Shown here: piece by piece, positions 34,171-57,560 of the stretch | Position numbering within the stretch: the first letter of the stretch is position 1 | How the letters are laid out: each line of letters opens with the position of its first letter | Source of the DNA: Flavobacteriales bacterium | GTDB lineage: Bacteria > Bacteroidota > Bacteroidia > Flavobacteriales_F > PHOS-HE28 | NCBI GenBank assembly: GCA_030584065.1 | Contig: CP129489.1 | Coordinates: 3,510,235-3,574,234 of the forward strand | Reading direction: 5' to 3' | Length of the DNA: 64,000 nucleotides | Notes under the pieces: model-generated | The model's input: only the letters and a program-made list of their open reading frames with translations | Database searches by the model: none | Told to the model about the DNA's origin: nothing | Program-made: the position numbers and the translations under genes

Positions 34171-37100
34171 TCAAGCAGGCACCTGGGTGCCCACTACGAT
34201 CTCCATCGCCTCCTTCGCGGCGTGCACGTTCTTTACATCCTGCACGCTGATCCGCAAGGTCCCCGCCTTCTCGTAAACCTTGAAGCGACGGGGCTGGGCC
34301 TGCACCGCCCGCAGCACCGCGTTGAAGCCATCGCCCTCGAAGAAGGGGTGTTTCTGGTCGGCGATGAAGGTGCCAATGAGCGTGCCCTTCTTCAGCACCA
34401 TCTTCTCCAGGCCCATGCGTTGGCCCAGCCAGCGCAAACGGATGCCTTCGAGCAACTCGTTCACCAGCGGCGGGATGGGGCCGAAGCGGTCGGTGATCTC
34501 GGCGGTGAACATCTGCAGCTCGGCTTCGTCCTTGATGTCGTCGAGGCGGCGGTAGAGCGCGAGGCGTTCTGCGGTCTCGCTCACGTAGCTGTTGGGGATC
34601 AGCATGGTGAGGTCGGTCTCGATGATGCAGTCGTCGCTCTGGTCGCGGCGTGATCCGCGGGCGAGGGCATGGCTGCCCTCCTGCGCATCGGCGAAGAGTT
34701 CCTTGAAGTGCTCGTCCTTCAGTTCGCGCACGGCTTCTTCGAGGATCTTGTGGTAGGTCTCGAAGCCGATGTCGTTTATGAAACCGCTCTGCTCCGCGCC
34801 GAGCAGGTCGCCTGCGCCGCGGATGTCGAGGTCCTTCATGGCGATGTGGATGCCGCTGCCCAGGTCGCTGAACTGCTCGATGGCCTGCAGGCGCTTGCGG
34901 CTCAGGTCGGGCAGCAGGTGCGGGCTCGGCGCGAGCAGGTAGCAGTAGGCCTTCTTGTTGCTGCGGCCCACGCGACCGCGCAGCTGGTGCAGGTCGCTGA
35001 GGCCGAAGTTCTGCGCTTCGTTGACGATGATCGTGTTCGCGTTCGGGATGTCGAGGCCGTTCTCCACGATGGTGGTGCACACGAGCACGTCGGTGTTGCC
35101 CTCGATGAAGTCGAGCATCACCTCCTCCAGTTTGTGGCCTTCGAGCTGACCGTGGCCCACGCCCACGCGGCAGCCCGGCACCAGCTTGCGGATCATGTCG
35201 GCGATGTGCTCGATGTTCTTCACCTTGTCGTGCAGGAAGTACACCTGGCCGCCGCGACTGAGCTCGTACTCGATCGCACCACGGATGGTCACCTCGTCGT
35301 ACGGTTGCAGCATGGTGCTCACCGGGTAGCGGTTGGGCGGCGGCGTGCTGATGATGCTGAGGTCGCGCGCGCCCATGAGGCTGAACTGCAGCGTGCGCGG
35401 GATGGGCGTGGCGGTGAGGGTGAGCGTATCCACGTTGGCGCGGATGGTCTTCAGCTTGTCCTTCACGTTCACACCGAACTTCTGCTCCTCGTCGATGATC
35501 ATCAGGCCGAGGTCCTTCCACACCACGTCCTTGCTCACCAGCCGGTGCGTGCCGATGAGGATGTCGATCTTCCCTTCCTTGAGGTCCTTGAGGATCTGTG
35601 TCTGTTGCGCGCTGGTGCGGAAGCGGTTGATGTAGTCCACACGCACGGGCAGGCCCTTCATGCGATTGGAGAAGCTTTTCCAGTGCTGCAGCGCGAGGAT
35701 CGTCGTGGGCACGAGCACGGCCACCTGCTTGCCGTCGCACGCCGCCTTGAACGCCGCGCGGATGGCCACCTCCGTCTTGCCGAAGCCCACGTCGCCGCAG
35801 ACCAGCCGGTCCATCGGCGTGGCCTTCTCCATGTCGCGTTTCACGTCCTGCGTGGCCTTCAGCTGGTCGGGCGTGTCCTCGTAGATGAAGCTCGCCTCCA
35901 GTTCGTGCTGCAGGTAGTTGTCCGGCTGGTACGCGAAGCCCGGTTTGCTCTTGCGCTGCGCGTAGAGCTTGATCAGATCGAAGGCGAGGGCCTTCACCTT
36001 GGCCTTGGTCTTCTCCTTCAGGTTCTTCCACGCGGGCGTGCCGAGCTTGCTGATGTTCGGCGCCTTGCCGCCCTCCTCGCCGCTGTACTTGCTCACGCGG
36101 TGCAGGCTGTGGATGCCCACGTAGAGGATGTCGTTGTCGCGGTACTTCAGGCGGATGGCCTCCTGCTTGCTGCCGCCCGCGTCGATGGTCTCCAGGCCGC
36201 TGAACACGCCGATGCCGTGGTCGATGTGCACCACCAGGTCGCCGGGTTTCAGTTGCGTGAGCTCCTTGAGCGTGAGGGCTTGCGCGTTCTTGCGGAAGCC
36301 TTCCTTCAGCCGGAAGCGGTGGTAGCGCTCGAAGATCTGGTGGTCGGTGTAGAGCGCCAGCTTCAGCTCGGGGTCGATGAAGCCCTCGTGCAGGTCGAGC
36401 ACCAGTGGCGTGAAGGCCACCTCGTGCTCCATGTCGTTGAAGATGGCGTAGAGGCGTTCGCTCTGCTTGGCGCTGTTGCAGGCGATGAGGTTGGTGTAGC
36501 CCGCGTTCTGCTTGTTGTGCAGGTCACCGGAGAGGACTTTGAACTCCTTGGCGAAGGTGGGTTGGGGGCGTTGTTGGAAGTCGATGAGCTCGGCCCCGGG
36601 CTGCGAGTTCATGGCCACGGGCTGTGGGCCACGGGCCTCGGGCTCGACCGTGCTTGAGCCCGAGGCCCGCAGCCCATGGCCCGCAGCCCAGAAAACCTTC
36701 CTGAACCCCAGCGTCCCCTTGATCAGCTCCGTGTCGGTGGCGAGCAGTTCGTTGGGGGTGGGGTGCTTGTCCTTGTCAGGCAGGCGCTCGTAGGCCTCGG
36801 AGAGGAGCTTCAGCTGCTTCTTGGCCGCATCGCCGATGGCCTGGAGGTCGCGTAGCCAGAGCACGGTGTCCTCGGGCAATTGGGCGAAGAAGGTCTGCTG
36901 GCGCGCGGCATCCTCGTCCTGCAGGTCGGGTACGATCACGGCCTCGGCCAGGCGCTCCACGGTAAGCTGGTCCTGCGGGTCGAAGCGGCGCACGCTCTCC
37001 ACGGTGTCGCCATAGAGCTCGATGCGGTAGGGCTTGTCGCTGCCGTAGCTGAACACGTCCACGATGCCGCCGCGGATGCTGTACTGCCCCGGCTCGTACA

Positions 37101-37719
37101 CGAACTCCACGCGGGCGAAGCCGGTCTCCTCTAGCCATTCCTGGAGCGTGTCGATGGGCAACTCCTCATTGCGCTTGACGGTGAGCGTGTTCTTCGCCAT
37201 CTCCTCCTTGCCGATCACGAGGGGGATGAGGGCATCGGGGTAGGTGACGATGATGAGTTTGTTGGTGAATGGTGAATGGGAGTTGGTGAATGGGGAATGC
37301 GCATCCGCGCCATTCGCCATTCGCCATTCACTATTCACCTTCATCAATGCCTCGAGCACCTCCGTGCGAGTCACCCGCTCGCCGTCATGGTGTCCTTCGG
37401 GATCGTAGGCCGAGCGTGAGGGTGCGGGGTAGAAGAACAGGTCCTCCTCCTTCTTCGCATGGCGCCCGTCCTTGTCCTTCCCGCGCAGCGCTTCGAGGTC
37501 ATTGAGGAAGTACGCAGCCTCCTCGCGGTCGGTGAGCACGAACACATGCACGCCGCCGCGCTGTTCGATCACGGCGTTGGCGATGAAGGCTTGCGACGAA
37601 CCGATGGTGCCGGCGATCTGCACGCGGGCGGCCTTCTCGCGCAGGGCATCGGCCACGCGAGCGACGCGGGCGTCTGAGCGGTAGAGGGAGAGGAGGTCGG
37701 GGAGGGAGGTGATGGACAT
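34171..37719 (-). CDS. mfd: Transcription-repair coupling factor
   Basis: The internal ATG gives MSITSLPDLL. UvrB-like N-domains, a TRG/TRCF region, helicase motif I GDVGFGKTEV and a C-terminal D7 domain; 1183 aa. Confidence 0.9.
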   Translation of the reverse strand: MSITSLPDLLSLYRSDARVARVADALREKAARVQIAGTIGSSQAFIANAVIEQRGGVHVFVLTDREEAAYFLNDLEALRGKDKDGRHAKKEEDLFFYPAPSRSAYDPEGHHDGERVTRTEVLEALMKVNSEWRMANGADAHSPFTNSHSPFTNKLIIVTYPDALIPLVIGKEEMAKNTLTVKRNEELPIDTLQEWLEETGFARVEFVYEPGQYSIRGGIVDVFSYGSDKPYRIELYGDTVESVRRFDPQDQLTVERLAEAVIVPDLQDEDAARQQTFFAQLPEDTVLWLRDLQAIGDAAKKQLKLLSEAYERLPDKDKHPTPNELLATDTELIKGTLGFRKVFWAAGHGLRASGSSTVEPEARGPQPVAMNSQPGAELIDFQQRPQPTFAKEFKVLSGDLHNKQNAGYTNLIACNSAKQSERLYAIFNDMEHEVAFTPLVLDLHEGFIDPELKLALYTDHQIFERYHRFRLKEGFRKNAQALTLKELTQLKPGDLVVHIDHGIGVFSGLETIDAGGSKQEAIRLKYRDNDILYVGIHSLHRVSKYSGEEGGKAPNISKLGTPAWKNLKEKTKAKVKALAFDLIKLYAQRKSKPGFAYQPDNYLQHELEASFIYEDTPDQLKATQDVKRDMEKATPMDRLVCGDVGFGKTEVAIRAAFKAACDGKQVAVLVPTTILALQHWKSFSNRMKGLPVRVDYINRFRTSAQQTQILKDLKEGKIDILIGTHRLVSKDVVWKDLGLMIIDEEQKFGVNVKDKLKTIRANVDTLTLTATPIPRTLQFSLMGARDLSIISTPPPNRYPVSTMLQPYDEVTIRGAIEYELSRGGQVYFLHDKVKNIEHIADMIRKLVPGCRVGVGHGQLEGHKLEEVMLDFIEGNTDVLVCTTIVENGLDIPNANTIIVNEAQNFGLSDLHQLRGRVGRSNKKAYCYLLAPSPHLLPDLSRKRLQAIEQFSDLGSGIHIAMKDLDIRGAGDLLGAEQSGFINDIGFETYHKILEEAVRELKDEHFKELFADAQEGSHALARGSRRDQSDDCIIETDLTMLIPNSYVSETAERLALYRRLDDIKDEAELQMFTAEITDRFGPIPPLVNELLEGIRLRWLGQRMGLEKMVLKKGTLIGTFIADQKHPFFEGDGFNAVLRAVQAQPRRFKVYEKAGTLRISVQDVKNVHAAKEAMEIVVGTQVPA
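37264..37339. repeat. Imperfect inverted repeat built from GAATGG heptamer-like units, inserted in-frame in mfd
   Basis: GGTGAATGGTGAATGGGAGTTGGTGAATGGGGAATGC gc ATCCGCGCCATTCGCCATTCGCCATTCACTATTCACC. It encodes ...EWRMANGADAHSPFTNSHSPFTNK... in the mfd reading frame. Confidence 0.6.
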
Positions 37720-38107
37720 GAACGGTGAAAAGCCCGAAACCCGGTGCCGCATGGTGCGGGCATCGGGTCCGGGAAGGTCGCAAAGTTAGGGCTGGTCCTG
37801 GGGGATGGCCGCCTTGGCGCCTTCTCCGGTCCATGCACCATTCCTTCCAGTTCATGTCATTTCACCATGGATAATGAAGGCGACCGGTGTCCCTTTGGCC
37901 CAGGAACCAACGGCCATGAACACTTCCCTCCATCACGCACGCTGCACCTCGCTGCAAATGCGGCAAGGCCAAGTCGCCCCCGCCCCGCATCTCCGGGTCA
38001 CCCACAGCGATGTGAGGACCGGGATCGCCGAGCCGGCCAGGCCCGCCTGCATGGGCGTGGTCGCGGCCACCCGCATGGAGGGGCATGGAACAAGCGCCCC
38101 CGTCGTC

Positions 38108-52091: not shown

Positions 52092-52310
52092 TTAGGCCTT
52101 CGGAGCCTGCTCAATGGCCCGCGTCAGCGCGATGAAGTCCGCCACGCTCAGCTGCTCGGCGCGCCTGCCCGCAAATTCAGCCGGCGGGGCGCCGGTCAGC
52201 TCCGGCAGCGGCTTCAGCGCATTGCGCAGGGTCTTGCGCCGCTGGTTGAAGGCGGTCTTCACCACCCGGAAGAAGAGCGCTATCGCATGGCAACCGCTGC
52301 GCGCCAGTGG
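52092..52310 (-). pseudogene. Remnant 3' fragment of rsmA/ksgA (encodes only the C-terminal ~60 residues), left next to mgtE
   Basis: The translation ...ALFFRVVKTAFNQRRKTLRNALKPLPELTGAPPAEFAGRRAEQLSVADFIALTRAIEQAPKA matches the C-terminus of the intact ksgA at 56790-57560. There is no N-terminal methyltransferase domain. Confidence 0.75.
52104..52282. repeat. Direct repeat, left copy (179 bp, about 98% identical to 56793-56971)
   Basis: Aligned by eye: identical except 3 mismatches (cagctg vs caattg; caaatt vs catatt). The offset is exactly 4689 bp. Confidence 0.8.
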
Positions 52311-52447: not shown

Positions 52448-53905
52448 TTACCGCACCAGGATCTTGGCGGAACGGCGGTCCCGCTCACGGGTAGCATGCA
52501 CGAAGTACACGGCGGGACCCGCGCGGGGCAGAGAGAACGTGGTGCGCAACCGCACAGCGGGCAGCGTGAGCACGGTTTGCCCGAGCGCATTCAGGATGTC
52601 GAGCCGCCATGGATGCGCGTCGGGAAGGTCGGCGACCCATGTGGTGCCCCCATCGATGGTGCTGCAGGACAATGCGGAACCTCCCTGCGGCGAAGCGCCG
52701 ATGCCCGTGCCTCCCCCCGGCAGCGCGCCCAGGTATTGGGCCACCTGGTTGATCGGCTGGCCGTCGATCTGGTCGAATCCGCCGCAGATGTACAGGCTGT
52801 CACGCCAGAAGGCCATGTCGCGGATGCGGGCCAGGTCGGGCACCAAGGGGTGCGGGGTGTGGAATGTGCCCGGCAACCCGCTCCATTGGCTGCCGTCCCA
52901 GATGGCCAGCCCGCCATTGAGGGCCTGGCCGCCGGCGTGGTCGAAGACTCCGCCCACGTAGAGGTGGCCATGGTGCCATTTCATGCGCATGGCCGTTGCT
53001 CCGCCGGCCTCTGCCAGATAGGCCAACCCTCCGCCCATGTCGCTCCAGCTCTGGCCATCGAATGCAGCTACCAAGTTGCCGGGCGCGCCGGTGCTCTGCT
53101 TGAAGGTGCCGCACACGTAGAGCACGTCATCGTGGATGAGCACATCACGGATGTGGTAGGCGTTGCCCCAGCCGGGCACGTATTCCCATTCAGATCCATT
53201 GAACCGCATGAAGTACCTGATGCCAGGCCCTATCGGATTCTGGAATCCACCGGTCATGTAGGTCATGCCTTGGAATTCGAACACATAACCCACATAGTCG
53301 CCATTGTCCGGTGCCGGAGGGATCTGCCCCCAGGGCTCCCACTCGTGGAAGGCGCTGCCATCGTAGCGGTACACGCAGGCCTCGGGGTAGCCGCAGAGGC
53401 TCTCGGAGTAGCCGGTGGCGTACATGCTGGTGGCGCCCGGGGTCTTCTGCACCAGCGTATTCAGGCCGCTCATGGCCGGGTTGATGCACTCGAGTGCCTC
53501 CCAGCGCTGGGTGGCCTCGTTCAGGCGGGCGAATGAGGTATTCCACGTCCCTTGATCGGTCATGAATGTGTAGCCTCCGCAGGAGTAGAGTTCATCTTGG
53601 AACCGGAGGAACCAGAAGGTCTGTTGGGCGCTCCCGCCACCAATGGGTTGTATGCGGTGTGCCAAACTATCCCAGCGCATGCCGTCCCAGGCGGCCTGAC
53701 CCACGCAGAGCACCGTGTCGCTCTGATTCAGGATGTACATGAACGTGCCACCAGCGAGCAACCGGTTGCTCACAGAATCCCCGAATAGGGTCTGCACCTC
53801 CAGGTGATTCAAGGTGCCGCGTCCACAGGCCTTCCAGTTGGGCTGGGCAAGCGCTGCAATGGTGCCCAGCCAACCTAATCCCAGGAGAACCAGACCGCGT
53901 CTCAT
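52448..53905 (-). CDS. Secreted beta-propeller (Kelch-like repeat) protein with T9SS type-A C-terminal sorting domain
   Basis: Signal peptide MRRGLVLLGLGWLGTIAALAQ. Repeated ...GG.F....G......A.WDG..W..LG... blades. C-terminus ...AVYFVHATRERDRRSAKILVR. ATGA overlap with the upstream gene. Confidence 0.75.
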   Translation of the reverse strand: MRRGLVLLGLGWLGTIAALAQPNWKACGRGTLNHLEVQTLFGDSVSNRLLAGGTFMYILNQSDTVLCVGQAAWDGMRWDSLAHRIQPIGGGSAQQTFWFLRFQDELYSCGGYTFMTDQGTWNTSFARLNEATQRWEALECINPAMSGLNTLVQKTPGATSMYATGYSESLCGYPEACVYRYDGSAFHEWEPWGQIPPAPDNGDYVGYVFEFQGMTYMTGGFQNPIGPGIRYFMRFNGSEWEYVPGWGNAYHIRDVLIHDDVLYVCGTFKQSTGAPGNLVAAFDGQSWSDMGGGLAYLAEAGGATAMRMKWHHGHLYVGGVFDHAGGQALNGGLAIWDGSQWSGLPGTFHTPHPLVPDLARIRDMAFWRDSLYICGGFDQIDGQPINQVAQYLGALPGGGTGIGASPQGGSALSCSTIDGGTTWVADLPDAHPWRLDILNALGQTVLTLPAVRLRTTFSLPRAGPAVYFVHATRERDRRSAKILVR

Positions 53906-56616
53906 CGCCTAGCAAGCTTAGCGTGAAGGGAGCTGCCCGATGCGCTAACTGCGCGTACCACATATAGACCGGCCGCGTGCGGTGAAAGGTCGAGCACATG
54001 TTGCTGCCGGGCTTCCTCCGCCAAGGTGACTTCGCGTCCCGCTGCATCGAACACCTGGATTACCCAGGTCTCATCGTCAGGCAGGCTCGCCATCCAAGCG
54101 CTCTGTGCAAACGGTGTCAGTAGCAGGGTGCCTTGCATCTGCGCAGGCATGGCCGCCTCAGGCAGGCCCACGGACAGTTGCGCACCGAAGCTGGAGATGA
54201 AGCCATCGTGCGGGGTGCTCAACAATTCCGGATACGCGATCGTGGTGAACTCATGATCCATGGCAGCCGAGAACTGATAGAAGGGCACCATCGATATGCT
54301 GGTGTTGCCGCCCAGGTTCCAATCCTGGTAAAGGTCCAGGTCGTTGTTGGGGTCGAAATCCCAGAGCGGGAACGCATCGGTCTGCTGGGAGGCGGTGGCG
54401 CCCACCAGGTACACCTCCGTGGCTGATGCGGCAATACCCCAACCACGGTCGCTCTGCACGCCGCCGAATGCGCTGCGCCATAGCATGGCTGGTGCCGGTT
54501 GGTCCGCCAGCGAGAGGATGATGGCATCGCGCCGGTTCCAGTAATCGTTCTGATCCTGATAGTAGTAGCTGCTGTTGATGTCGGTACTGAAGCCCTCGGC
54601 GCTGCGCGTCTCGCCGGTGATGAACACGCGGCTATCGTCGTGGCTGTTCACGTCCAGCAGCACATCGTCGCGCAGCCCCCCGATGAGCGTGCCGTAGTTG
54701 AGGTCGAAGGGCGCCAAATGGAAGCGCAGGATGAAGCCATCCGCTCCCTGGCCGTAGGTGGTGCCCGCATGGCTCTGGCTGTGATGCACGCCTGACCCGT
54801 CCGGATGGGGACAATGATCCTTGGTGAGCTCCGTATCGGTGGTATAGCCCACCACCCAGAGCGATTTGCTCGTGAGTTCAAGGCCGTATGCCTCCGCCAG
54901 CCAATCGCCCCAGCGTGTGCAGTATTCTACTTGGTACTGGTTGTTGATGTCGATGCGGGCGATCATGGCCGAAGGCCCATTCGAGCTGGATTGGAAGAAG
55001 GCGCCGGGCAATGATTGCGTATCCAGCGCGCTGCCCGTTCCTGTGGAACTGGTGCCTGTCAACCAGATGACCTTCTTGCCCGAACCCGGCACAGGCGCGA
55101 TGCGCAGGTCGGTCACCTTGGTGTAGGCATCTTCCGGATCGTATTCACCGAAGGTGGTGGCCCATTCGATGTCGTAGTCCGCATCGAACACGATGAAGAA
55201 GCCGCCGCCAACGGCGCGGCTGAATGCGCCCGTGGGGGTGACAAGGGGGAAATCGGGCGTAGAGGCCCCCATGATGCTGAAGGTCTCGATCTGCCCGCCC
55301 ACCACCACCTGGCCCGTGGGGTCCACATCGATGGCCAGGCCATGCTCGCTCCAGCTCACCTCACCGGATTGCCCGTGGGTGGTGGCCCAATCGCGTATGC
55401 CGTTCTCTTTCCTGAATGCACCGACCCACATGCGCATGGTGCCGCCATCATAAGCCTCCGCAAATGCATCTGTGAAAACAGAGGAAGGGTCTGTATAGGG
55501 CAAGAAATCCGTGCAATTGGTGCTCCCCGTCACGAACACATGATCTACGCTGCTCTCTTCAGTGGCATCCACCGCCAGTTTGTGCGCCTTGGTGCGCGCG
55601 CTCCACTTGCCCCCGTCGTAGCCACCGTAATAGGTGGCCCATTGGGTCACTTTATCGGAAGCACGCACCTTCATGATCACCGCGCTCCACCAGCCTGCGG
55701 GTTCGCTGATGAAGGGGGTATGTTCCGTGTAGCCTACTGCAATGGGGAAATAGGTGCCAGTCACATAACCGCAGGCGTAGGGGTTGCCCTGCTCATCCAC
55801 TTCCACGCACTCCAGTTCATCGCCGCCCTGGCCGCCCGCGTAGGTGCTCCAGTTGAGGTTGCGCTGCTCGGGGCCGCCGCCCATCATGGCAGGCGGGTAT
55901 CCGATCTGCAGGATCAAGGGCCAGGCGGGGTTGTAGCTCTCATACTCGAAGCCCACGGTGAAATTGCCCGGCTCTACCACGTAGTCCGCCGTCCAGTTCA
56001 CGGGAACGACCTGGCCGTTGCCGTTGACTTGAAAGGCGAGTGCTTGATCCAGCTTGACCCACTTGTCCGCGAGATGGACCTTCAGCGCTCCTAGCCAATC
56101 GACTTTGATGCTGTCCTGCCCGGTGAAGCTCAGCTTCACATCGGCCGGGGTTCCGCCGGGCCGGATGACGATGGCCATGCGGGGCCCCGTGCTTCCATAG
56201 TAGTAATGGATATCCGTTTTCTCCCAGGCTTCTTCGTACACGACGCGTTGGTGTCCTTCCACCCCTTCCGCTGAGAATGATCCGAGATAATAATTGGTGA
56301 CGCCTTCCAAGGCCGGGCCCACCGGAACCGGGTCCACCTCCTTGTCGCCCATGAGCATGTCGATCCGGTAGAGGGTATCCGTGGTGGTGCTGTCGTGGTG
56401 CAAGGCGGCCAGGGTGTAACTCACCAGGCTCTTGTTCCGCAGGAAGATCCCGATGGGGGTCCGCTCATAGTAGTAGGCGCAATCCGCCAAGGGTGTACCG
56501 TCGGTGCGCAGCACCTGCCCGGCATGCTGCCGCAGTGGCGTGAAGCCGTGACCGGCATCCCCATACGGATCGGGCGGCACATATACTTGGGCGCTAACCC
56601 CGGACACTCCTGCCAA
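53902..56616 (-). CDS. Large secreted SBBP-type beta-propeller repeat protein with T9SS type-A C-terminal sorting domain; 5' end displaced from its ATG by a heptanucleotide repeat
   Basis: SBBP-like repeats (YAGGQGGDELECVEVDEQGNPYACGYVTG; YYGGYDGG...HVFVTGST). C-terminus ...LYVVRAVSASGSSLHAKLARR. The track start 56616 is TTG. The signal-peptide-like sequence RWRLTQALQCLLLAGVSGVSAQ continues upstream in the same frame with no ATG; the only ATG (56708) is in the +1 frame. Confidence 0.75.
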   Translation of the reverse strand: MAGVSGVSAQVYVPPDPYGDAGHGFTPLRQHAGQVLRTDGTPLADCAYYYERTPIGIFLRNKSLVSYTLAALHHDSTTTDTLYRIDMLMGDKEVDPVPVGPALEGVTNYYLGSFSAEGVEGHQRVVYEEAWEKTDIHYYYGSTGPRMAIVIRPGGTPADVKLSFTGQDSIKVDWLGALKVHLADKWVKLDQALAFQVNGNGQVVPVNWTADYVVEPGNFTVGFEYESYNPAWPLILQIGYPPAMMGGGPEQRNLNWSTYAGGQGGDELECVEVDEQGNPYACGYVTGTYFPIAVGYTEHTPFISEPAGWWSAVIMKVRASDKVTQWATYYGGYDGGKWSARTKAHKLAVDATEESSVDHVFVTGSTNCTDFLPYTDPSSVFTDAFAEAYDGGTMRMWVGAFRKENGIRDWATTHGQSGEVSWSEHGLAIDVDPTGQVVVGGQIETFSIMGASTPDFPLVTPTGAFSRAVGGGFFIVFDADYDIEWATTFGEYDPEDAYTKVTDLRIAPVPGSGKKVIWLTGTSSTGTGSALDTQSLPGAFFQSSSNGPSAMIARIDINNQYQVEYCTRWGDWLAEAYGLELTSKSLWVVGYTTDTELTKDHCPHPDGSGVHHSQSHAGTTYGQGADGFILRFHLAPFDLNYGTLIGGLRDDVLLDVNSHDDSRVFITGETRSAEGFSTDINSSYYYQDQNDYWNRRDAIILSLADQPAPAMLWRSAFGGVQSDRGWGIAASATEVYLVGATASQQTDAFPLWDFDPNNDLDLYQDWNLGGNTSISMVPFYQFSAAMDHEFTTIAYPELLSTPHDGFISSFGAQLSVGLPEAAMPAQMQGTLLLTPFAQSAWMASLPDDETWVIQVFDAAGREVTLAEEARQQHVLDLSPHAAGLYVVRAVSASGSSLHAKLARR

Positions 56617-56670
56617 CAGTAAGCATTGGAGAGCTTGTGTCAGACGCCACCTGCCCTTGCCCCTGTCCTG

Positions 56671-56705
56671 CGTTCTGCGTTCTGCGTTCTGCGTTCTGCG
56701 TTCTG
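56671..56705. repeat. Heptanucleotide tandem repeat (CGTTCTG)x5 (minus-strand CAGAACG) between the ATG and the signal-peptide-coding frame of the T9SS cargo gene
   Basis: Five perfect 7-nt units, read directly from the sequence. Confidence 0.85.
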
Positions 56706-56736
56706 CATGGTTACAGGAATTGGATAGGTGAAGCTA

Positions 56737-56755: not shown

Positions 56756-56789
56756 CCAAAGGCTGTTGAAAAGTCGAGGCGATGGCGGG

Positions 56790-57560
56790 TCAAGCCTGCT
56801 CAATGGCCCGCGTCAGCGCGATGAAGTCCGCCACGCTCAATTGCTCGGCGCGCCTGCCCGCATATTCAGCCGGCGGGGCGCCGGTCAGCTCCGGCAGCGG
56901 CTTCAGCGCATTGCGCAGGGTCTTGCGCCGCTGGTTGAAGGCGGTCTTCACCACCCGGAAGAAGAGCGCTTCATCGCAAGGCAGCCGCTCCACCCTGTTG
57001 CGCTTCATGCGGATCACGCTGCTGCGCACCTTGGGCGGCGGTATGAAGCTGCCGGGCTCCACATGGAAGAGCAGCTCCACATCATAATAGGCCTGGGCCA
57101 GCACGCTGGTGATGCCGTAGGTCTTGCTGCCGTGGGGCGCGCGGATGCGGTCGGCCACCTCTTTCTGGAACATGCCCACAAGCTCGGTGCACCGGTCGCG
57201 GTGCTCCAGCACCTTGAAGACGATCTGCGTGCTGATGTTGTAGGGGAAATTGCCCGCCACAGCGAATCGGCCTTCGGTCACGCCGTCCGGATCCATGCGG
57301 AGGAAGTCCTCCTCGCGCACGTCGATGCCGGGGTATTGCGCGCGCAGGTAGTGCACCGATTCACGGTCGACCTCGAAGCAGGTGGTGGTGAAGGCCTTGC
57401 GCGCGAGCAAGTGCTTGGTGAGCGCACCGGTGCCGGGCCCCACCTCGATCACGGTGGTGTAGCCGCCGTGACCGGTTAGGCCATCGGCAATGCGCTGCGC
57501 GATGCCGTCCTCCTTGAGGAAATGCTGGCCGAGATGCTTCTTCGGGGTTACCGCGTGCAT
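56790..57560 (-). CDS. rsmA: 16S rRNA (adenine1518-N6/adenine1519-N6)-dimethyltransferase
   Basis: MHAVTPKKHLGQHFLKEDGIAQRI..., a SAM-binding motif (VIEVGPGTGALT) and a KsgA C-terminal domain. ATG at 57560 (the track's first M is GTG). Confidence 0.9.
   Translation of the reverse strand: MHAVTPKKHLGQHFLKEDGIAQRIADGLTGHGGYTTVIEVGPGTGALTKHLLARKAFTTTCFEVDRESVHYLRAQYPGIDVREEDFLRMDPDGVTEGRFAVAGNFPYNISTQIVFKVLEHRDRCTELVGMFQKEVADRIRAPHGSKTYGITSVLAQAYYDVELLFHVEPGSFIPPPKVRSSVIRMKRNRVERLPCDEALFFRVVKTAFNQRRKTLRNALKPLPELTGAPPAEYAGRRAEQLSVADFIALTRAIEQA
56793..56971. repeat. Direct repeat, right copy (inside the 3' end of the intact ksgA)
   Basis: See the left copy at 52104-52282. Confidence 0.8.

Follow-up and report, generated by a model that had tools for sequence, protein, structure and literature searches.

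How does the gene for a large secreted protein come to lie in a reading frame that offers no start codon ahead of its own signal peptide? The question is raised by a locus in an uncultured Flavobacteriales bacterium, studied here in a window of 64,000 nucleotides (nt) of contig CP129489.1 (GenBank assembly GCA_030584065.1, positions 3,510,235 to 3,574,234; coordinates below count from the first letter of this window). On the minus strand, the gene annotated as QY325_14810 is preceded by an ATG codon and a tandem array of the heptanucleotide CAGAACG, and the number of units sets whether the ATG and the signal peptide share a frame. The locus is quite probably a simple-sequence-repeat contingency locus that works as a translational phase-variation switch. 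The repeat would decide whether a large secreted protein receives a start codon and a signal peptide, and natural ON (three units) and OFF (four or five units) alleles are found in the same genetic background in metagenomes from engineered ecosystems. The window carries the five-unit OFF allele.

Read along the minus strand, the 5' end of the gene consists of ccaattcctgtaacc, the ATG (56706..56708), five units of CAGAACG that form the proposed switch element (56671..56705), and CAGGACAGGGGCAAGGGCAGGTGGCGTCTGA. Tandem Repeats Finder places the periodic run at 56668-56706 (39 nt, period 7, 5.6 copies, 100% matches). Nowhere else in the 64-kb window is a heptamer array perfect over five or more copies, and the 14-mer CAGAACGCAGAACG occurs four times against 0.04 expected from shuffles. 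An 81-nt spacer separates the ATG from the end of rsmA (ksgA), which lies at 56790 on the same strand. The main open reading frame (ORF) has 904 codons when counted from a TTG (53902..56616, minus strand). NCBI starts the protein at GTG 56607 instead, giving 901 amino acids (aa) that lack the signal peptide, and because of this annotated start a search for the exact 904-aa product returned no match; a like search for RsmA had no match either. The frame is open upstream as far as a TAG at 56736 and holds no ATG, GTG or TTG upstream of TTG 56616, which is itself already within the hydrophobic core of the signal peptide (...GKGRWRLTQALQCLLLAGVSGVSAQ). The segment coding for that signal peptide (56590..56670, minus strand) specifies a QDRGKGRWR n-region, a LTQALQCLLLAGVSGV core and a predicted cleavage site between SA and Q. 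No canonical start codon (ATG, GTG or TTG) is available from the repeat to the hydrophobic core; CTG codons are found at 56643 and 56619.

The ATG that abuts the repeat is in a different frame from the main ORF. It reads MQNAERRTQNAERRTGARAGGV and ends at a TGA after 22 codons (56640..56708, minus strand). Because seven is not a multiple of three, each gain or loss of a unit shifts the frame. Rebuilding the locus in silico with one to nine units brings the ATG into frame at three, six and nine units, with products of 930, 937 and 944 aa. At all remaining counts, translation is cut short after 15-42 codons. A sequence-only reading made before this analysis had described the ATG next to an out-of-frame (CAGAACG)x5 array, an open 904-codon frame without an ATG, and restoration of the frame by six or three units. 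The sequence, Tandem Repeats Finder and the in-silico rebuild bear out each of these points. Its length of 42 codons for the five-unit ATG frame needs correction to 22, since 42 is the value for seven units. The arrangement has the anatomy of a contingency locus, with a perfect tandem repeat in the 5' coding region directly after the ATG and a unit length, not divisible by three, that shifts the gene between a full-length and a truncated product.

The protein that depends on this frame appears to be an exported one. It carries a DUF7948 domain (E 1e-19, at about 55912-56481), and about 36 full-length relatives were found, all from uncultured Flavobacteriales-like genomes and metagenomes; the window's own copy belongs to a metagenome-assembled genome (MAG) of a 'Flavobacteriales bacterium', on a 3.9-Mb contig. 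In the in-frame allele only, inspection finds a Sec signal peptide whose n-region is charged, whose hydrophobic core spans 16 residues and whose cleavage falls between VSA and Q. This site obeys the Q-rule for signal-peptide cleavage in Bacteroidetes, which places Q at +1 (PMC5837995). The sequence-only reading had called the protein a cargo of the type IX secretion system (T9SS). At the level of the family the label is well supported, with 21 of 29 aligned members matching TIGR04183 at E<=0.01 (best 8e-8) and several relatives named T9SS type A sorting domain proteins by NCBI. For the window protein itself it is likely; the type A C-terminal domain at about 53926-54069 is weak, scoring 17.4 bits with Pfam (cut-off 27) and 19.2 bits with TIGR04183 (cut-off 23). 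In a related MAG (L156), a gldD lipoprotein gene adjoins a paralogous locus.

The first prediction of a switch is that the repeat number should vary among near-identical genomes, and it does. A protein from the 90%-identity cluster of the window protein (P0123) has 930 aa, starts MQNAERRTQDRGKGRWRLTQALQCLLLAGVSGVSAQVYVPP (MQNAERRTQDRGKGRWRLTQALQCLLLAGVSGVSAQ...), and is identical to the product predicted for three units. Eight contigs, each from a different sample, encode this protein; they were drawn from MEGAHIT k127 assemblies of bioreactor sludge (PRJNA254356), metaSPAdes assemblies ERZ761602/03/07, and JGI assemblies 3300006417 and 3300030366. Six contigs (L147, L148, L149, L151, L152 and L153) match the window with no mismatches over 4.3-10 kb, save for one 14-nt gap, which corresponds to three units in the contigs and five in the window. 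Two more (L146 and L150) differ from the window by a few single-nucleotide polymorphisms (SNPs) and have three units too. A 98% identical strain (L154, from JGI 3300048839) carries four units, the other out-of-frame state. One lineage is found with three (ON), four (OFF) and five (OFF) units, and the commonest allele in the window's species, on 8 of 11 contigs, is the one that puts the ATG in frame. Unit-number polymorphism in near-identical genomes, another mark of a contingency locus, is present in these counts, which come from assemblies rather than reads. Since three and five units occur with no substitution in flanks of up to 10 kb, the repeat mutates far faster than point substitutions accumulate.

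Repeats of this kind can be miscounted by short-read assemblers, and the whole series might come from one true repeat length, the three-, four- and five-unit alleles being products of k-mer collapse or long-read consensus error and the gene permanently ON or permanently OFF. In a de Bruijn graph, period-7 runs that exceed k+6 become loops and may collapse to k to k+6 nt, with an expected 25 nt (three units) at k=21 and 32 nt (four units) at k=31. The 39-nt run of the window does loop at k=31, and the observed runs of 25 and 32 nt are the exact collapse lengths for k=21 and k=27-31, respectively. One Logan contig (L001), with four units, was rejected as a case of polymorphism for this reason, exactly 32 nt being the length to which a 39-nt run would collapse at k=31, and a second (L122), with the same minimal 32-nt run at k=31, was discounted likewise. 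Several SPAdes contigs have only 5-6x coverage. Against collapse as a general explanation stand the three-unit alleles, which recur in eight assemblies from three pipelines with final k values of 55-127, far above the 39-nt array. As we understand SPAdes and MEGAHIT, their intermediate-k contigs would be unbranched paths stopping at the branch points of a loop, and a collapse should not carry forward from them. The JGI contig with four units has a 32-nt run, and another JGI contig (L125) resolves a run of 88 nt. Copy number differs among other species and strains as well, and in-frame N termini that include the repeat are found in proteins called independently from ENA, NCBI and JGI assemblies. 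An artefact is on this evidence a decidedly unlikely source of the alleles, and a repeat that truly varies in unit number remains the preferred explanation.

The same layout recurs well beyond the window's species. The 5' regions were read at 21 metagenome loci and at several loci obtained through exact-protein look-ups. At 13 of 15 family loci, a promoter box is followed after 19-22 nt by an ATG, a repeat and the core of a signal peptide. The repeat itself is not conserved: the units are CAGAACG, CGCCCAT, CAGGA, GAAG and CAGACACT, with lengths of 4, 5, 7 or 8 nt and never a multiple of three, and these five different sequences occupy the same few nucleotides past the start codon. Outside the Logan assemblies there are three in-frame examples. 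One (L124, MEGAHIT k141) has an ATG followed by one degenerate and four perfect CAGAACG units, and there MLNAERRTQNAER makes up the whole charged n-region. A second (L129) has four units, and the third (L155) has ATG GAT and then (CGCCCAT)x6. In the first and third of these, the repeat-encoded peptide is the only possible n-region. The peptides that the various repeats encode (QNAERRT, RPSPIAH, KEGR and QDRTG) are hydrophilic and neutral to basic, compatible with the n-region of a signal peptide.

Other loci are out of frame. Besides the window, these are L123, L125-L128, L131, L135, L137-L139, L141 and L156; they include one with five units (L123), one with (CAGGA)x6.8 (L131), one with about nine units of GAAG (L135), and a closed 3.66-Mb MAG with about six degenerate units of CAGACACT (L156). 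In a second species, two contigs that are 99.7% identical (L125 and L126) carry 12.6 and 3.6 units, both out of frame. Four relatives (L132, L136, L140 and L142) lack a repeat and have an ordinary ATG and signal peptide. A further locus (L130, 3889-4060) has an ATG and (CAGAACG)x4.4 in frame with the signal peptide (MQNAERRTQNAWRPVSAILALHCGALLLHAQA) and a second frameshift that parts the signal peptide from the mature protein, as in a pseudogene or an assembly error. The recurrence across species, together with the three- and four-unit alleles of the window's own species, supports the phase-variation reading proposed from the sequence alone, and the comparison of orthologous loci for unit-number differences that had been suggested as a check came out positive.

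A simpler account of the out-of-frame alleles would be that the site is a mutational hot spot with no function as a switch, where an unstable repeat inactivates the gene again and again and OFF alleles such as the window's are heading for loss, rather than an evolved, reversible device for bet-hedging. The predominance of out-of-frame alleles in other species would fit such decay, as would the second frameshift in L130 and the degenerate repeat in L156. Against decay, all of the out-of-frame alleles keep open frames of about 900 codons, and ratios of nonsynonymous to synonymous substitution (dN/dS) between pairs of OFF alleles are low: 0.28 for the window and L154, 0.09 for L123 and L125, and 0.18 for L127 and L128. 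The OFF allele of the window shows no substitutions relative to the ON alleles. The presence of five non-triplet unit sequences at the same site past a conserved ATG also points to selection for a repeat that shifts the frame. As judged from these substitution patterns, the OFF alleles are not dead genes but are under purifying selection; the genes must then have been expressed through much of their evolutionary past, and the OFF state would be transient. The same selection lends indirect support to the gene being in use. Decay at a hot spot is unlikely, though it is the strongest of the competing explanations, and a contingency locus accounts better for intact genes behind a frameshifting repeat.

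Whether the repeat is translated at all depends on where transcription and translation begin. A candidate -7 box of the Bacteroidota sigma-A type (TAnnTTTG-like), TAGCTTCA, lies at 56729..56736 on the minus strand, and a candidate -33 element, TTTG, lies 20 nt upstream of it at 56757..56760. A box of the TA(G/C)CTT(C/T)(A/G) type is found 19-22 nt before the ATG at 13 of 15 family loci, whichever repeat comes next, with a TTG about 20 nt further up at 12 of the 15. The Bacteroidota sigma-A promoter has the form TTTG/TANNTTTG, its -7 box spanning -12 to -5 (PMC6847099). The window box agrees with the Flavobacterium johnsoniae consensus at four of six near-invariant positions, and those of two relatives (L137 and L139) agree at all six. 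Transcription most likely starts about 15-17 nt before ATG 56708, which would be the first ATG of the message. The resulting 5' untranslated region (UTR) would be close to the median of 24 nt in F. psychrophilum (PMC9723704). No inverted repeats were found flanking the promoter, and no survey of the window for invertase genes was made.

A structured RNA or riboswitch in the leader was considered and rejected. The leader and repeat give no Rfam match at E<=1 and show no excess of secondary structure, folding no better than shuffles (z = +0.79). An unstructured leader is in keeping with initiation of translation in this phylum, where Shine-Dalgarno sequences are absent (PMC6847099). Throughout the family the ATG holds a constant position with respect to promoter box and repeat, and the (R)WR motif, the hydrophobic core and the ending at A before Q are conserved in the main frame across species. 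With (R)WR conserved in frame and no canonical start codon from the repeat to the hydrophobic core, translation must begin at or before the repeat, and the ATG adjacent to the repeat is in all likelihood the true start.

The main challenge to this start is the idea that the repeat belongs to an untranslated leader, with a noncanonical start downstream and an effect of copy number on expression through the mRNA, as has been proposed for the TAACTGA arrays of Beggiatoaceae. Heptamer arrays just upstream of start codons are known in other bacteria (PMC4679880), and the ratio of ON to OFF alleles across species, about 1:2, is what would be expected if frame were of no consequence. The CTG codons at 56643 and 56619 could serve as such a start; initiation at 56643 would lose the RWR part of the n-region, and yet RWR is conserved in frame across species. 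No ATG, GTG or TTG precedes the hydrophobic core, the ATG sits at a fixed 19-22 nt from the promoter box, and at the two in-frame loci where the repeat peptide is the only possible n-region (L124 and L155) an untranslated repeat would leave the signal peptide without one. The commonest allele in the window's species is in frame with the ATG, on 8 of its 11 contigs. An untranslated repeat is very unlikely as a result, and translation from the ATG through the repeat is retained.

It could also be imagined that the frame is restored during expression, by programmed frameshifting or transcriptional slippage, leaving the five-unit allele partly ON. In seven of nine out-of-frame species the shift is in the same relative frame (-1/+2), a bias that would fit such a mechanism and that is not significant (one-sided binomial about 0.09). 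CAGAACG contains neither a slippery site of the X XXY YYZ form nor a homopolymer run, the z score given above indicates no stimulatory structure, and no Rfam frameshift element is present. Programmed frameshifting was rejected on the lack of both a slippery site and a stimulatory structure, and restoration of the frame by either route is extremely improbable.

The switch can be pictured as follows. A promoter of the Bacteroidota type (TTTG, 20 nt, TAGCTTCA) would start the mRNA shortly before ATG 56708, and slipped-strand mispairing during replication would add or remove heptamer units, probably at high frequency and in both directions. At three, six or nine units, ribosomes starting at the ATG would read heptads of QNAERRT as a hydrophilic, positive extension of the n-region, followed by RWR, the hydrophobic core and the cleavage site between A and Q. 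The in-frame preprotein would be exported by Sec, cut between VSA and Q to give a pyroglutamyl QVYVPPDPYGDAGHGFTPLR N terminus, and then handed on to the T9SS by way of its C-terminal domain. With four, five, seven or eight units, ribosomes would stop after 22-42 codons and the large ORF would go untranslated, and the cell would make at best a cargo protein from an internal TTG or GTG with no signal peptide. The downstream partner gene, which overlaps the cargo gene at an ATGA, would probably lose translational coupling in the OFF state. Pressure from phages or grazers on a surface protein is a plausible selective agent.

Several points weigh against reading the locus as a switch. All copy numbers stem from assemblies, with a small risk of collapse for MEGAHIT and SPAdes contigs, several of them at 5-6x coverage. 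The five-unit count is the consensus of a single MAG, and heterogeneity within one population and reversibility are presumed, the comparison covering assembled sequences. The signal peptide was assigned by eye and not by a predictor, and the T9SS C-terminal match of the window protein falls below the curated cut-offs. The window's promoter box has only four of the six near-invariant positions and carries a G at -10, which is avoided in F. johnsoniae. Alleles in other species are mostly out of frame, at about 11 OFF to 5 ON, a ratio that equals the expectation for random frames and would also fit a repeat in an untranslated leader.

The locus has consequences for how such genomes are annotated. 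Gene callers start QY325_14810 (at GTG 56607) and its relatives P0007, P0008, P0031 and P0127-P0131 at an internal GTG, TTG or ATG within or past the signal peptide, since the true ATG lies in another frame. Secretome predictions from MAGs will miss such proteins as secreted. The repeat counts in MAG consensus sequences record the state of a population and should not be 'corrected'. If the switch answers phage or grazer pressure, its state could be tracked in public time-series metagenomes of bioreactors.

The partner gene (52448..53905, minus strand) encodes 485 aa with its own signal peptide, MRRGLVLLGLGWLGTIAALA followed by QPN at the cleavage site, and shows weak Kelch or beta-propeller-like matches. 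Its ATGA overlap with the stop of the cargo gene, described in the earlier reading, is present as stated, and the pair of genes is kept in other species. In the comparison of the window with the 98% identical strain (L154), 111 of 263 differences fall within about 1 kb of the partner gene (52500-53500), and a single 500-nt stretch of the cargo gene (55000-55500) holds another 40, whereas the background elsewhere is about 1-10 per 500 nt. Within the partner gene, at window positions 52707-53551, lie the ends of seven short-read contigs that are independent of one another (L147-L153). The contig ends suggest that co-existing alleles break the assembly graph here, and the pile-up of SNPs is what diversifying selection or recombination might produce in a surface-exposed protein.

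The two genes form a 4.7-kb cassette enclosed by a direct repeat of about 200 bp that derives from the 3' end of rsmA. The upstream copy is at 56793..56993 and the downstream, displaced copy at 52104..52298, both on the minus strand; they are about 96-98% identical across the repeat, and the arrangement is present in all strains examined (L146 and L154). The displaced copy continues to ...EQAPKA and a stop, and is probably the ancestral end of rsmA. The direct repeat looks like a scar left by insertion or single-crossover integration, and homologous recombination between its copies could loop the cassette out. The synteny of rsmA with the cargo gene extends to a species with only 50% protein identity (L127). 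No phage genes were found near the cassette; the genes called in the flanking 6 kb or so on each side, in homologous contigs, are housekeeping genes.

Heptamers of another kind are found in mfd (34171-37752, minus strand), which contains two in-frame inverted-repeat elements at 36613-36690 and 37263-37336. Their arms are heptamer arrays of the GGCCACG/GGCCCGC and TGGTGAA/CGCCATT types, and they add ...SEWRMANGADAHSPFTNSHSPFTN... and ...AAGHGLRASGSSTVEPEARGPQPVAM... to the transcription-repair coupling factor. They resemble in-frame palindromic insertions such as the Rickettsia palindromic elements.

Arrays of CAGAACG itself are widespread. A scan of 185,579 species genomes for three or more tandem units found at least 120 stretches in many phyla (L002-L121). 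The matches listed include Thermoanaerobaculia (with several loci per genome), Chloroflexota, Acidobacteriota, Acidimicrobiia, Planctomycetota and Proteobacteria. Among these listed matches, which were uninformative on Flavobacteriales, the arrays are mostly intergenic and usually have degenerate flanking units. For 29 of 110, a (GTTCTGC)n array in inverted orientation is found no more than 120 nt away; contig ends carry some of the arrays of 11-14 units, and there is no orientation bias toward downstream ORFs (48 vs 55). The possibility that CAGAACG is a specially favored heptamer in viral contigs was rejected, with two matches against six and four for two permuted arrays of the same composition.

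A broader proposal is that the DUF7948-plus-partner operons for secreted proteins found in uncultured Flavobacteriales from the environment are, as an entire family, evolved contingency loci, in which second-order selection keeps a frameshifting repeat at one fixed site, bounded by the conserved ATG and the core of the signal peptide, while the unit turns over (4, 5, 7 and 8 nt), coupled to strain-level hypervariability of the partner gene. This is advanced tentatively, with prospects that are nearly balanced and stop a little short of probable. If true, repeat-driven bet-hedging at the cell surface, so far seen as a trait of host-adapted pathogens and commensals, would be routine in free-living bacteria of sludge and fresh water. 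The long-unexplained heptanucleotide repeats of environmental genomes would also gain a concrete function.

Phase variation driven by repeats is textbook material for Neisseria, Haemophilus, Campylobacter and Helicobacter. The closest parallel to the present locus is neuO of Escherichia coli K1, which has an AAGACTC heptanucleotide repeat 2 nt past the start codon, is switched ON only by unit counts divisible by three, and gains one RLKTQDS heptad for every three units (PMC3046976). The heptads form a variable N-terminal extension, and slippage of single units has been proposed there (PMC3046976). The locus described here likewise has a heptanucleotide repeat by the start codon, is in frame at multiples of three, and encodes one heptad per three units. 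The two differ in unit (AAGACTC vs CAGAACG), in copy number (2-93 for neuO vs 3-12.6 here) and in product: neuO encodes a cytoplasmic enzyme, a polysialate O-acetyltransferase, on the CUS-3 prophage of a host-associated pathogen, whereas the present gene encodes a secreted protein of uncultured environmental Flavobacteriales, with the heptads placed in the n-region of a signal peptide. No homology to neuO was found, the window protein being DUF7948 and beta-propeller-like rather than an acetyltransferase. The resemblance is one of analogy, not membership.

The opa genes of Neisseria offer a second comparison. They carry (CTCTT)n in the region coding for the leader peptide, with about 11 paralogues per genome in an obligate human pathogen. 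As in the present locus, a non-triplet repeat in the signal-peptide coding sequence of a surface protein moves the mature protein in and out of frame; in opa the pentamer codes for part of the hydrophobic core, whereas here the repeat codes for the charged n-region. The contingency loci of Haemophilus influenzae, Campylobacter and Helicobacter share slipped-strand hypermutation in genes for surface structures, with the frame setting ON or OFF. Their units are 1-4 nt long (tetranucleotides or poly-G) and their hosts are host-adapted bacteria with small genomes, whereas the repeats described here are mostly 7 nt long and belong to free-living bacteria of bioreactor sludge, at 65% G+C.

Within Bacteroidota, the invertible promoters and shufflons of Bacteroides provide the same kind of stochastic ON/OFF control over surface or secreted structures in the same phylum. 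They depend on site-specific invertases acting on inverted repeats, and not on a change in repeat number. To our knowledge, the switches known in Bacteroidota are DNA invertases, and the 5-11 nt repeats of free-living bacteria have no assigned role. Full-text literature searches returned no paper on a repeat-based switch for a T9SS cargo, in Bacteroidota or in Flavobacteriales, with reports from other phyla only. A 2025 review covers Bacteroides phase variation as invertase based only. The literature agrees in this respect with the earlier judgment that switching by repeats would be unusual for the phylum.

Among long simple repeats, heptanucleotide arrays are described as the most common type in many environmental genomes, their function being unknown, in the account of Mrazek et al. 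2007 given in PMC4679880, and they are often close to start codons (PMC4679880). So far as such accounts describe them, the long heptanucleotide repeats of environmental bacteria, including the short tandemly repeated repetitive (STRR) sequences of cyanobacteria and the TAACTGA arrays of Beggiatoaceae, are mostly intergenic. Unlike those, the array described here lies inside a coding sequence, and the effect of its length on the frame is a definite one. The mechanism itself is a known one; what is new is the host and its phylum, the gene family and the ecology.

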